From the NCBI RefSeq assembly GCF_029227855.1, contig NZ_CP074357.1: DNA of 64,000 nt; one strand, written 5' to 3'. The position numbers were made by a program. This document shows, piece by piece, positions 1 to 6,000 of the stretch. Within the stretch, counting starts at the first letter, position 1; each line of letters starts with the position of its first letter. Source of the stretch: Escherichia coli. Its GTDB lineage: Bacteria > Pseudomonadota > Gammaproteobacteria > Enterobacterales > Enterobacteriaceae.

Positions 1-3000
1 GGTGCTCGGCGTGGCAAGACTCGCAGCGAACCCGTAGAAAGCCATGCTCCAGCCGCCCGCATTGGAGAAATTCTTCAAATTCCCGTTGCACATAGCCCGG
101 CAATTCCTTTCCCTGCTCTGCCATAAGCGCAGCGAATGCCGGGTAATACTCGTCAACGATCTGATAGAGAAGGGTTTGCTCGGGTCGGTGGCTCTGGTAA
201 CGACCAGTATCCCGATCCCGGCTGGCCGTCCTGGCCGCCACATGAGGCATGTTCCGCGTCCTTGCAATACTGTGTTTACATACAGTCTATCGCTTAGCGG
301 AAAGTTCTTTTACCCTCAGCCGAAATGCCTGCCGTTGCTAGACATTGCCAGCCAGTGCCCGTCACTCCCACTCGATTGTAAACAAGCACACAAAACCCTT
401 TAGTGACAACAATTTGCAAGAACTATCAGGCTCAGTGCCATGAAAAATACCATGACCAGATCATGAGGTTGAACACGGCTTGCGCCGGCAGCGTTCACGC
501 TCCTGGTCGGCGATCTCGCCCGGCTGCAATGCTAGCTCAGCATCGGTCATGCGCTCCAGCACGTCGCGTAGGCGGATGGTGCAAGGAATGGGCGGCAGCT
601 CGAACTCATAGCCGCCGGCGATCATTTCGGCCGCAATCTCCTCGGTGATGAAAAACGGCTCGTCGTCTTGGTTCGGCTTCTTCATGCCCTTTCCTCCTGG
701 CGCTCATCCTGGCCGACAGCGGCCAGGGCATCGGCTTCCGTCAATGCGTCCTCCACGAACGCGCCGTGCTGCTTCGCTTCGGCCTGGCTGACCTCGGCCC
801 ATATCCGTTTCACCTGGGCCGCACTGTACCCGGCCAGCTCGGCGGTCTTGTTGATGCTGTAGCCGGACTTGCGCAGCGCGACAACTTGGGCGCGGCGCTT
901 CGGATCAGCACGGCGGCCCTTGTACCGCCCGGCCTGGCGGGCCAACTCAATGCCTTGGCGCTGGCGTTCGCGCCTGTCCTCGTAGTCGTCGCGGGCCATC
1001 TGCAAGGCCAGGCGAAAAAGCATGATCTGCACGGCTTCCAGCACGATCTTGGCGACGCCCTGGGCCTCGGCCGCCAGGTCGGATAGATCGACCACGCCAG
1101 GGACGGCCAGGCGTGCGCCTTTGGCCTGTATCGAGGCCACCAGGCGCTCGGCCTCGGGCAAAGGTAGGCGGCTGATGCGGTCGATCTTCTCGGCAATGAC
1201 CACCTCGCCGGGCTGTAGGTCGCCGATCATGCGCAGCAGCTCAGGCCGGTCGGCGCGTGCGCCGGATGCCTTCTCACGGTAGATGCCGGCGACGTAGTAG
1301 CCGGCGGCCTTCGCGGCCGTAGTGATCGCCTCTTGGCGTTCCAAGTCCTGCGCGTCGGTGCTGACGCGCAGATAGACCCGCGCCACCATCGGCGCGGCTA
1401 CTGGCTTCGTCCTGCGCATACTTGCGGGCTCCTTTGGGCATACGCAAAGTGTCCGGTCATGCTACCCCCGGCCAAAAAGGCCGTCATGCGATTTATCTTG
1501 GCCGGGTCGTTATTGGCGGGTCTAAATGGCCGCTCCGTGGATCTCATCGCCAGAAATGGCGATGCGAGATCCAGGGCAGGGCGGCCGCCATCGTCAGACC
1601 TGGCGATGGTCGACGCCGGCGCGCATCGTCGGATGTGGCGATGCGAGCTCGAGGTCGGTGGCCACCGCCGGCGACCTGGTGCCATCGTCGGCAATGGCGA
1701 TGCTGCAGCTCGACGTGCGCGGCCTGGTCGTCTCGGCATCGTCGGATGCGGCGATGCTCGAGCGAGGCGAAAAAAAACCGCCTCGGGGTGTCCGAGGCGG
1801 CAAGTCTGCATGCGGTTCAGGGAGGAAGAAACCGCGCCGGCGATCAGGGAGGAAAACCGCGCGGCCTGATGTGCAGCTCGGCCACTTTAGCCGGATTTTT
1901 CGACTTATCCGATGCGAGCGGCCCGCCGTGGGCGCTGCTCGATCTGCTGTTGCTTTTTCTCGACGTGCTTCTGCTCCTGGTGCTGCTGCTCGTCGCGCGG
2001 CACTGTTGCAAAGTTAGCGATGAGGCAGCCTTTTGTCTTATTCAAAGGCCTTACATTTCAAAAACTCTGCTTACCAGGCGCATTTCGCCCAGGGGATCAC
2101 CATAATAAAATGCTGAGGCCTGGCCTTTGCGTAGTGCACGCATCACCTCAATACCTTTGATGGTGGCGTAAGCCGTCTTCATGGATTTAAATCCCAGCGT
2201 GGCGCCGATTATCCGTTTCAGTTTGCCATGATCGCATTCAATCACGTTGTTCCGGTACTTAATCTGTCGGTGTTCAACGTCAGACGGGCACCGGCCTTCG
2301 CGTTTGAGCAGAGCAAGCGCGCGACCATAGGCGGGCGCTTTATCCGTGTTGATGAATCGCGGGATCTGCCACTTCTTCACGTTGTTGAGGATTTTACCCA
2401 GAAACCGGTATGCAGCTTTGCTGTTACGACGGGAGGAGAGATAAAAATCGACAGTGCGGCCCCGGCTGTCGACGGCCCGGTACAGATACGCCCAGCGGCC
2501 ATTGACCTTCACGTAGGTTTCATCCATGTGCCACGGGCAAAGATCGGAAGGGTTACGCCAGTACCAGCGCAGCCGTTTTTCCATTTCAGGCGCATAACGC
2601 TGAACCCAGCGGTAAATCGTGGAGTGATCGACATTCACTCCGCGTTCAGCCAGCATCTCCTGCAGCTCACGGTAACTGATGCCGTATTTGCAGTACCAGC
2701 GTACGGCCCACAGAATGATGTCACGCTGAAAATGCCGGCCTTTGAATGGGTTCATGTGCAGCTCCATCAGCAAAAGGGGATGATAAGTTTATCACCACCG
2801 ACTATTTGCAACAGTGCCCTTGAATCTATCCGGCGTCTGAATGGGATTTTATTCCCGCGCCTTGATGAGTTCCGCGCCTGATGAACCTCCAGAAAATATA
2901 CGGCTTCAATGAGCCTTTCCGTTTTACAGGTTCCTCAACAGGCCGGTGGGCCGTTAGTATCATCAATATCAGTATTCGCAAAACCAGATCAGTAATTCTT

Positions 3001-6000
3001 TAAACCGGTGTATTTCTGCCGTTATGCTACATAAGTTTGCTGTCGTGCCGTTAGGGCCCAGGCTATTCTGGCCAGCTTGTTTGCCAGAGCACAAGTGACG
3101 ACAAAGTTGCTTTTCCGGCACAGTAAATCCCTGACCCAATCGGCCAATTTGCCAGACTGGTGTTCCAGTTTTTGTATGAATACCCTGGCACATTGAACCA
3201 ACAAAGTTCGGATCTTTTTATTACCTCGCTTACTAATTCCCAGCAATGTCGTCCTACCTCCCGTGCTGTACTGCCGAGGTACAAGCCCTGTTGCCGCCGC
3301 AAAGTCACGGCTGCTGGCGTACTGCTTCCCGTCGCCAATCTCAGTTGAAATAGTACTCGCTGTCAGTGTTCCGACGCAGGGAATGCTCAGCAAGCGCTGT
3401 CCAACCTCATCTTCGTCCAACTTTCGTTTCAACTGGGATTCCAAATCTTTAATCTGCTCAACAAGATAGTGATAATGCTGTTGTAATTTCAGCAATAACT
3501 GGCTGAGGTAAAGAGGCAAACTACTGTCCTCAAGAATGGTACTCAGTCGGCTAATAACGGCAGCTCCTCGGGGAACGCTAATGCCAAATTCCAGCAGAAA
3601 AGCATGCATTTGATTGGTTGTTTTTACCTTATCCTGAACCAGGGATTCACGGACACGATGCAGAGCCCGCATTGCCTGCTGAGATTCCGTTCTGGGCTGC
3701 ACAAAACGCATAGACGGACGCGATGCAGCTTCACAAATAGCTTCGGCGTCGACAAAGTCGTTTTTATTGCTTTTAACGAACGGGCGGACAAATTGTGGTG
3801 ATATCAGCTTTGGGGAATGCCCCAACTCTTCCAACTTGCGTGCCATAAAGTGAGAACCGCCACAGGCTTCCATTGCGATGGTTGTAGCGGGGCATGTCGC
3901 CAAAAATTCGATCAACTTTGGCCGGGTAAATTTTTTACGGTAAACAGCCTTCCCGCGACGATCCTGGCAATGAATATGGAAAGAGTTTTTACCCAGATCG
4001 ATACCAATGAGCGCAATGTTTTCCATGATAGTTCTCCGAATGAAAGCCTGTCCTCAGCATAGTACCGGGAAGGAGGGAGTGACCATCTCATTAAATATCC
4101 CACGCTAAGACTGTTTGCTGTACAAATTGATGTCGACAGCGCGTAATGACCGTAGTCACAGGAACAGCTAATGGTATTGAAAATTGACCCGTAACTGAAA
4201 CAGCATCGACCCAGCAGCGATGATGTGAACCTTGAAGAACTTTGGGTGCAGCCTCTTATAGCAGCAGTTTTTGCTGTTGTTCCCTTAATAAGATATGCCC
4301 TGTAAATACCCTCATGGCTTCATTTATAATACTATTATTAGCTTACTACGACTCAGTCTAGAAACAGCATCATCTCCACTGGGGCTAAAACACCACTTAC
4401 CGCATGCTTTCATATAACCAGATTTCAGCCCCCTTGAAAGGGACTAATCGCTGTATACCAGCGAGTCTAAAACACCTTGTCCACTATGGACCCCTCCCTC
4501 TGTCGATTCAGCTGATTTGCTACGAATTAGATATCCAGCAAAACTGTGCTCAGCACTGGAGGGATTGTTATCTGTCTGCACGGAGAACATTCCAAGTTCG
4601 CTTATCAAATCATTCACCTTATGCAACTCCCCTTTACGCACAATCAAGGTGGGCATAGCTCGGGGCTGAGGGTGTAAACGGCGCATCAGCGACCAGGACT
4701 GATATTGTTGTGGAGTGAGTTCCGTCAGTTTTGTCAGGATATCCGCACCAAACAGACAATGCCCCCCGCCTTCACCCTGATTTTTGAGAACCCAGGTTTC
4801 CGAAGGAGACTCTTTTGCAAGGTTGATACTATCCGGGCTGATGGGTAACATCTCACCCAGTATCGTTTTTGCTATTTTAGCTTCCTGCAGTGTTAATCCA
4901 AATGCGACAAACTCGTCGTAACCCAATTGCGAGAGCAGCATTTGTACTCGCTTGCTGGTCGCCAGTTGCTGGCCAACTGTGGCGTTCACTGCAACCCGGT
5001 GCTGCTCAATGAATACTCGGGTCGCCATCAGCGCCTGACAACACTCCTGCTCATCGATATTGAATGCTTCATAATCAGAATACTGATATCCGGCACGTAA
5101 GTAGACGGTATCAAGTGGGCCTACACCCTCGAGAATGAGCCTGTTGTCGGCGCCTGTACTCAATTGATTATGCAGTTCACGAAAAGTCCTGCGATGCGTT
5201 TCGATTCCTTTTTGCTGGAGGGCGAGCTCAAGCAAGTGTTGATCAAACACATTATTTTCATTCTCCTGCACAATCATCAGGAACCTGGCAGGGCCGGGGT
5301 CTCCGAACTCCTGCTTAATTCTGCAAGTTGCCTGACAAATCGCTGCTGATAACCCTTCGATCGCTTGATTGTCGACAAGCGCCCCTGTTGCCTGATTCGA
5401 TAAATCAGAAAAGACAGCGGGATATTGCCGTTGTAGATAGTGATGCAGATCATGTATCCGCTGACCAAACGGCCCCATTCCTGCAGCTATACCATTGAAC
5501 TCTATAAGCCTGAACCCATCACGATTATCATCCATAAAGTCGCTACGCATAATGAGTAATGGTAATCGAGGAGCATGCCTTGATGATGAATGGATTTGTT
5601 GATGCATGTTCAGGAGGGCTGAAAAGAAGGCATTCCCGGCCTTGATGGGATAAATCGCAGAGTACAAAAAATCATGATCCTCAGAAACTGAATAGATTAA
5701 TTTGCTGAGTATTCCTGTTGCATTCTTTAAGTACTGATAGGATTTACGGCTGATAGGTGTTGGTGTCAGGGTAAACGGGGTATGCACTGCGGAATACGAC
5801 GATTCCTTGAAAGCAACACCATGAGTTAAGGCCCATTCGACGGCATCATCCTTGAGCTTCTGAACATCAAGAGTACTCATTTTACGTCCCCTGATTTTAC
5901 CTGGCATATCATTGGTGGTTGTTACTTGGCTATCAGCCTATAAAATTTGATTGATTACTTCAATAGTTCACGTATAGGAAATTGAAAAACCAGTCGATAC

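Follow-up and report, generated by a model that had tools for sequence, protein, structure and literature searches.

Which insertion sequence (IS) borders IS26 near the beginning of the 64,000-nucleotide stretch of Escherichia coli DNA that we analysed (contig NZ_CP074357.1, assembly GCF_029227855.1; hereafter the window), is this element complete, and into what did it insert? The original prediction, made from the nucleotide sequence alone, was that an element like IS4321 or IS5075 had been cut here by IS26, and that a 9-mer at its other flank resembles the inner end of the 38-bp terminal inverted repeats of Tn21-type transposons. Our comparisons indicate, with a probability of roughly 93%, that positions 2819-4093 are a copy of IS4321 that inserted in the end-repeat of a transposon and was later truncated by IS26. 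The arrangement is already known and nothing in it is new in kind: that IS4321 and IS5075 target Tn21-type repeats has long been known (cited in PMC11187229), and a version of the 'IncN1 segment', the DNA in which the element lies, with an IS4321 insertion has been noted before (PMC6288184). The answer nevertheless has several parts, which concern the extent of the element, the nature of its target, its identity and its remaining capabilities.

Extent of the element and its truncation by IS26

The boundaries of the element were set empirically, using six intact copies that reside in different transposons and adjoin merR or Tn3-family transposase genes. All six are 1327 bp long, and the window copy, which lies on the minus strand, aligns to them without gaps over positions 1-1275 in the element's own orientation; that is, 2819-4093 is IS4321 minus its last 52 bp. 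In that same orientation, the intact copies begin with TAATGAG-ATGGTCACTCCC and end with GGGAGTGACCAT-AGA, i.e., they have 12-bp subterminal repeats that are followed towards the outside by extensions of 7 and 3 bp, respectively. Elements of the IS1111 family are organized in this way, having subterminal inverted repeats of 11-13 bp with a 7-bp extension on the left and a 3-bp extension on the right (PMC11187229). The left end of the window copy is intact (4075-4093, minus strand) and consists of the extension TAATGAG (4087-4093) and the 12-bp repeat ATGGTCACTCCC (4075-4086), which is present as a single copy in the window. Also intact is the transposase gene (3022-4026, minus strand), whose open reading frame translates into a protein of 334 amino acids with an N-terminal DEDD/RuvC-like domain (PF01548, DEDD_Tnp_IS110; 74.6 bits, cut-off 29) and a C-terminal Transposase_20 domain (PF02371; 72.3 bits, cut-off 21.3). 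The intact copies contain 67 noncoding nucleotides upstream of this gene and 255 downstream of it, and 203 of the latter are retained in the window (2819-3021, minus strand). The DEDD and Transposase_20 domains, the subterminal repeats, the long downstream noncoding region and an insertion that is specific for site and orientation (see below) are all features of the IS1111 family, which ISfinder places within IS110.

The part that is missing comprises the end of the noncoding region, the right subterminal repeat GGGAGTGACCAT and the 3-bp tip. Beyond the base equivalent to 2819, the intact copies continue for 52 bp (TCTATGGTCACTCCCGTTTTTGCAACACCGATTTTGACGACAAGTTGGCTTG on the plus strand of the window) and then pass into the outer half (22 bp; GGGGTCGTCTCAGAAAACGGAA or near variants) of a 38-bp repeat, and this half of the target has been lost together with the right end of the element. 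Neither the missing 52 bp, nor the right subterminal repeat, nor the 22-bp outer half-repeat was found anywhere in the 64-kb window, in which the sole near match to the half-repeat belongs to a separate relic repeat at 9353-9390. Thus, the predicted loss of sequence downstream of the transposase gene is confirmed by the comparison with the 1327-bp copies, and the predicted distance of about 200 bp between this gene and IS26 corresponds to the 203 bp that separate its stop codon from IS26. The IS26 end is indeed present, although not at 2819, where it had been placed: IS26 ends at 2818 and is followed by IS4321 (2819-4093) and the remnant of the target repeat (4094-4109).

The abutting IS26 is itself complete (1999-2818, transposase gene on the minus strand). 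It has the features of this member of the IS6 family, being 820 bp long, having 14-bp terminal repeats at both ends (GGCACTGTTGCAAA at 1999 and TTTGCAACAGTGCC at 2805-2818) and containing one transposase gene, whose 100% matches are annotated as 'IS6-like element IS26 family transposase'. A simple insertion of IS26 generates an 8-bp target duplication. The 8-mers on either side of this copy are unequal (CGTCGCGC versus CTTGAATC), so that there is no such duplication and the element is not a simple insertion. A deletion or recombination mediated by IS26 would leave no such duplication, so that its absence is no argument against the identity of the element as IS26. Truncations of this kind are what adjacent deletion by IS26 or recombination between IS26 copies usually produces, and we infer that IS4321 lost its end by one of these two routes. 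The alternative that survives best is that IS26 simply inserted into IS4321, the remaining part of which should then lie nearby. IS26 is known to insert into other elements, and in plasmid H36 the match to IS4321 falls into two pieces, with an annotated IS26 between them or next to them. For the window this is, however, an unlikely course of events in view of the unequal flanks of IS26, the absence of the missing 52 bp and of the outer half-repeat from the entire window, and the unrelated DNA to the left of IS26.

A 240-bp probe centred on the IS26/IS4321 junction (2818/2819) was covered in 84 plasmid records and, among the matches listed, most carriers belong to the IncHI2 plasmids found in Salmonella, E. 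coli and Enterobacter. The junction between the left end of IS4321 and the repeat, probed in the same way, was covered in 151 plasmid records, so that 84 of the 151 records with IS4321 at this repeat have the IS26 junction. The IS26/IS4321 junction is useful for tracing the lineage of IncHI2 and related multiresistance plasmids, and otherwise the locus matters mainly for correct annotation.

The target is the end of a transposon

At its intact end, IS4321 is followed by AATATCCCACGCTAAG (4094-4109, plus strand), the inner 16 bp of a 38-bp terminal inverted repeat of the Tn3 family, which is the target of the element. In the six intact copies, the IS ends at the base equivalent to 4093 and the sequence continues with the Tn21-type inner segment AATAAAGCACGCTAAG, with which AATATCCCACGCTAAG is identical at 13 of the 16 positions: after AATA there are three mismatches (TCC for AAG), which are followed by the 9-mer CACGCTAAG (4101-4109), present once in the window. 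The flanks of 22 and 16 bp rebuild a 38-bp repeat in the six intact copies as well as in plasmid pN62675 (CP043751.1), in one orientation and without target duplication. pN62675 contains a complete IS4321 with the same right flank as in the window and with GGGGTCCGCTTGGAAAACGGAA on its other side. When the two halves were joined and used as a query, the full, uninterrupted repeat GGGGTCCGCTTGGAAAACGGAAAATATCCCACGCTAAG plus the same right flank was found with 100% identity in at least 40 plasmids. The 9-mer is therefore what it had been predicted to be, the inner end of a Tn21-type 38-bp repeat, and it is only the extent of the repeat that was underestimated, 16 bp being present instead of nine. 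It had also been stated that the rest of the repeat is not recognizable; this holds for the three bases that differ, but the outer 22 bp are not to be expected on this side, because IS4321 splits the repeat 22|16 and they belong beyond the deleted end of the element.

Over its full length, GGGGTCCGCTTGGAAAACGGAAAATATCCCACGCTAAG is identical to the Tn21-type repeat at 31 of the 38 positions. It shares with the repeats of the Tn21 subgroup (Tn21, Tn1696 and the TnAs3-type ends found in loci L001-L006) the length of 38 bp, the outer GGGG, the inner ACGCTAAG and the unchanged central AAAACGGAAAATA, and the core around the insertion point, AAAACGGAA|AATA, is conserved between the variant and the Tn21-type repeats. 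It differs from them in belonging to another lineage and in having been, before the insertion of IS4321, a solo end of about 80 bp.

A possible objection is that the 38-bp sequence is merely a look-alike in the IncN backbone, into which IS4321 inserted off-target. The sequence is located directly beside IncN iterons in most plasmids, including three in which the site is empty, the whole block has been treated as the 'IncN1 segment' in the literature (PMC6288184), and no transposase gene adjoins the repeat in the window. This explanation is nonetheless very improbable for several reasons. A scan of one genome per species for the 38-mer or a one-base variant of it yielded 41 copies in 34 loci, with a different outer flank each time, in hosts that include Photorhabdus, Xenorhabdus, Symbiopectobacterium, Pantoea, Erwinia, Hafnia, Serratia, Kluyvera, Enterobacter and Shewanella. 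In one of these loci (L044), the gene for a Tn3-family transposase of 994 amino acids terminates inside the repeat, as transposase genes do in Tn21-subgroup repeats, and in another (L041) two inverted copies of the repeat are 3.05 kb apart. In pN62675, the left flank is different: the repeat adjoins a fragment of a Tn3-family transposase gene, and the sequence diverges from the IncN-iteron context exactly at the outer GGGG. Hence, the repeat shows what is characteristic of Tn3-family repeats, namely a length of about 38 bp, the outer GGGG, the inner ACGCTAAG and an exact boundary of mobile DNA, with an adjoining transposase gene and an inverted partner repeat being present in the related loci (L044 and L041) and not in the window. 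Finally, the roughly 40 bp inside the repeat can still be read as the C-terminus of the transposase of this lineage. This relic of the 3' end of the gene (4105-4152, minus strand) consists of about 13 codons plus a stop codon that lies inside the repeat, and its frame reads ...LRSLRAVDINLYSKQS, as compared with ...YRALRSVNSSLYKKQA in L044.

Judged by these sequence relationships, the owner of the repeat is a Tn3-family lineage that is related to Tn21 and widespread in Enterobacterales, and the repeat is not Tn21's own. Plasmid-borne relatives of the L044 transposase, with 94-96% identity, are found on many plasmids, where they are annotated only as 'Tn3 family transposase'. The similarity of the window DNA to the interiors of these transposons (80-87% at the nucleotide level) extends no further than 75-81 bp from the repeat's outer end, and a tblastn search with the 994-residue transposase gave no match at 4110-4443 at E < 1e-3. 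Because the repeat remnant and about 40 bp behind it, some 60 bp in total, are all that matches the transposon lineage in the window, the target of IS4321 is a solo relic end and not a working transposon, and no partner repeat belongs to it.

A second 38-bp terminal repeat of the Tn3-family type, GGGTTCCACTTGGAAAATGGAAAACATCCTACGCTAAG, is located at 9353-9390 (minus strand). It is identical to the repeat split by IS4321 at 33 of the 38 positions, has the inverse orientation and is part of an IncX1-like backbone fragment; it contains no IS4321 and has two mismatches to the core AAAACGGAA|AATA; the similarity to an IncK2/Z plasmid breaks within its outer ~10 bp. We considered whether the repeats at 4094-4109 and 9353-9390 are the two ends of one transposon and rejected this, as an IS1294 fragment, an IS26 fragment and the IncX1-like backbone piece lie between them.

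Further traces of such transposons were observed. Transposition immunity is usual in the Tn3-type family to which the repeat lineage belongs. At 8795-8947 of pN62675 (L008), the complete IS4321 and the repeat are directly adjacent to a transposase gene fragment of the same lineage (residues 887-933, 83% identity) in opposite orientation, which suggests that one copy of the transposon transposed or was rearranged into another despite this immunity. In Photorhabdus cinerea DSM 19724 (L016-L027), at least 18 copies of the same 38-bp repeat are present, often some 90 bp away from the ends of contigs, and a transposon of this lineage has evidently multiplied in the genome, breaking up its assembly. 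The window itself contains, at 12208-13008 (minus strand), a fragment of a Tn3-family transposase gene that aligns, with 67% identity, with residues 717-983 of the L044 protein and abuts the IS26 end at 13006; it comes from a Tn3-family element other than the one that left the relic at 4094-4152.

The element is IS4321 and not IS5075

The original prediction left open which of the two close relatives is present. A search of 72,556 plasmids with 2820-4109 as the query produced thousands of full-length matches, of which those with at least 99% identity are annotated as IS4321 and those with about 93.3% as IS5075. In an ungapped comparison, the window copy has 2-5 differences from IS4321-annotated copies (99.8% identity) and 84 from IS5075-annotated copies (93.4% identity over the retained 1275 bp). 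The type copies of IS4321 are those in the IncP-1 plasmid R751, and the window copy is 99.5% identical to one of the two R751 copies and 96.9% to the other. The protein leads to the same assignment, with one substitution relative to the common IS4321 transposase (S168 for N168) and five residue differences from that of IS5075. An identification as IS5075 would draw on what the two have in common, i.e., the length of 1327 bp when intact, the architecture, the target and a near-identical downstream noncoding region (one difference in the last 223 nucleotides as against 77 in the 1005-nucleotide gene); set against the 84 differences, it is highly improbable. The predicted IS4321/IS5075-like element of the IS110/IS1111 type is thus specifically IS4321. 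With the R751 type the window copy shares, besides the 334-residue transposase with its one substitution, the left end and the position and orientation of insertion in the 38-bp repeat. It differs from this type by the absence of the last 52 bp and by its location in a variant repeat, in which the bases that adjoin the insertion point on the inner side are AATATCC and not AATAAAG.

Predicted guide RNA and mobility

According to the literature, elements of this family combine a DEDD transposase with a guide RNA, move through a circular intermediate without target duplication and insert at one position and in one orientation. In IS1111-family relatives, a short RNA derived from the noncoding region behind the transposase gene is purified together with the transposase, and the segment of this seekRNA that matches the top strand of the target lies 5' of the segment that matches the bottom strand (PMC11187229). 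ISEc11, ISKpn4 and ISPa11, for which the seekRNA has been shown experimentally (PMC11187229), have the same transposase domains and long downstream noncoding region as IS4321, and also share with it the 12-bp subterminal repeats with 7-bp and 3-bp extensions, the lack of target duplication and two segments that match opposite strands of the target; they use other targets, and the segments of IS4321 are predicted from its sequence only. The first predicted guide segment, AAAACGGAAA (2916-2925, minus strand), is identical to positions 14-23 of the repeat and spans the insertion point. The second lies 17 nucleotides downstream of it and matches the other strand of the repeat, again across the insertion point, over 7 nucleotides in Tn21-type repeats (TATTTTC, 2892-2898, minus strand) and over 8 in the variant repeat of the window ((A)TATTTTC, 2892-2899). 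The order of the two in IS4321, with the top-strand match 5' of the bottom-strand match, is that of the IS1111 seekRNAs. In 2000 shuffles of the noncoding region, a spanning match of at least 10 was obtained 15 times and both segments were obtained once. The near-invariance of the last 223 nucleotides between IS4321 and IS5075 likewise fits a guide RNA.

Formation of the circle in relatives requires the downstream noncoding region, both ends of the element and both target flanks (PMC11187229). When the ends of intact IS4321 copies are joined, they read TTGCAA, 17 nucleotides, GATAAT, which by analogy with ISEc11 may be the junction promoter of an IS4321 circle. The truncated copy, which has lost its right end, the target flank on that side and the -35 half of this predicted promoter (TTGCAA), should be immobile, unable to excise or circularize. 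Its transposase gene and both predicted guide segments are intact, and the copy is inherited in at least 84 plasmids. That it could provide complete IS4321 or IS5075 elements in trans with transposase and predicted guide RNA, or act on Tn21-type repeats at other places in the cell, is a speculation to which we assign little probability; if true, the locus would be a fixed helper, and not inert debris.

Some points weigh against the interpretation given so far. The assignment of a guide RNA to IS4321 is, although it fits the sequence, a prediction: the 7-mer of the second segment alone is expected by chance, the noncoding regions of IS4321 and IS5075 are too alike to show covariation, a scan of 2600-4400 against Rfam returned no guide-RNA family but only a chance match to a snoRNA (E = 0.96), and the predicted region folds into a plausible stem with an internal loop whose stability does not stand out from that of shuffled sequences (z = -0.40). 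As to the truncation, the sequence cannot separate deletion by IS26 from recombination. With respect to the target, the 9-mer CACGCTAAG could by itself be due to chance, as it turns up once or more in 27 of 100 shuffles of the window; it is still real because it is part of a 16-bp stretch of the repeat that begins exactly at the IS boundary defined by the six intact copies. The notion built on this chance frequency, of an element complete within 2820-4100 beside a coincidental 9-mer, has next to no probability, given that intact copies run 52 bp past 2819 to a right subterminal repeat that is absent from the window, and that 4094-4109 is the inner part of a 38-bp repeat that occurs elsewhere uninterrupted with the same right flank.

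History of the locus

Comparison with other plasmids reveals three steps in the history of the locus. First, a Tn3-family transposon related to Tn21 left a solo end, consisting of the 38-bp repeat and about 40 bp, in a segment with the IncN repA iterons and gshB. Second, IS4321 inserted between positions 22 and 23 of this repeat; site and orientation agree with those in Tn21-type repeats, owing to the conserved core AAAACGGAA|AATA. Third, IS26 took away the terminal 52 bp of IS4321 together with the 22 outer bases of the repeat and all that lay beyond them, leaving no 8-bp duplication, presumably either by an adjacent deletion or by recombination between IS26 copies. Since IS4321 used a relic repeat from a lineage other than that of Tn21, it needs only the central AAAACGGAA|AATA core of the 38-bp repeat, a requirement that fits the RNA-guided choice of target shown for the IS1111 family.

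Neighbouring IncN1 segment

The block 'delta-repA, iterons, gshB, delta-IS1294' has been named the 'IncN1 segment' of mcr-1 IncHI2 plasmids (PMC6288184). Positions 4094-6083 are the right part of this segment with 100% identity, and IS26 takes the place of the repA-iteron part and of the IS4321 end in the window. The gshB-like gene (4444-5907, minus strand) encodes a protein of 487 amino acids with the eukaryotic-type glutathione synthase domains PF03917 and PF03199; it is annotated as glutathione synthase and is not of the usual bacterial type. We also considered gshB as a gene accompanying an intact parent transposon. Its sole diverged homologue, which has 80.5% identity and is carried by a Citrobacter arsenatis plasmid, has arsenic-related genes as neighbours but neither repeat nor transposase, and because the transposon relic measures only about 40 bp and the tblastn search of 4110-4443 was negative, gshB is not demonstrably a passenger of the repeat lineage. 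The 114-bp fragment at 5970-6083, which alone matches about 2000 further plasmids, is reported to be the oriIS end of IS1294, cut by IS26 (PMC6288184).

Adjacent to it, at 6084-6384 (plus strand), lies a truncated IS26 of which only the first 301 bp remain and whose orientation is opposite to that of the complete IS26 (1999-2818); the two are identical over these 301 bp, after which the sequence diverges. The junction at 6083/6084 recurs in pN62675 and in those plasmids whose site is empty. More IS26 ends are found at 13006, 13812, 15006 and 15812.

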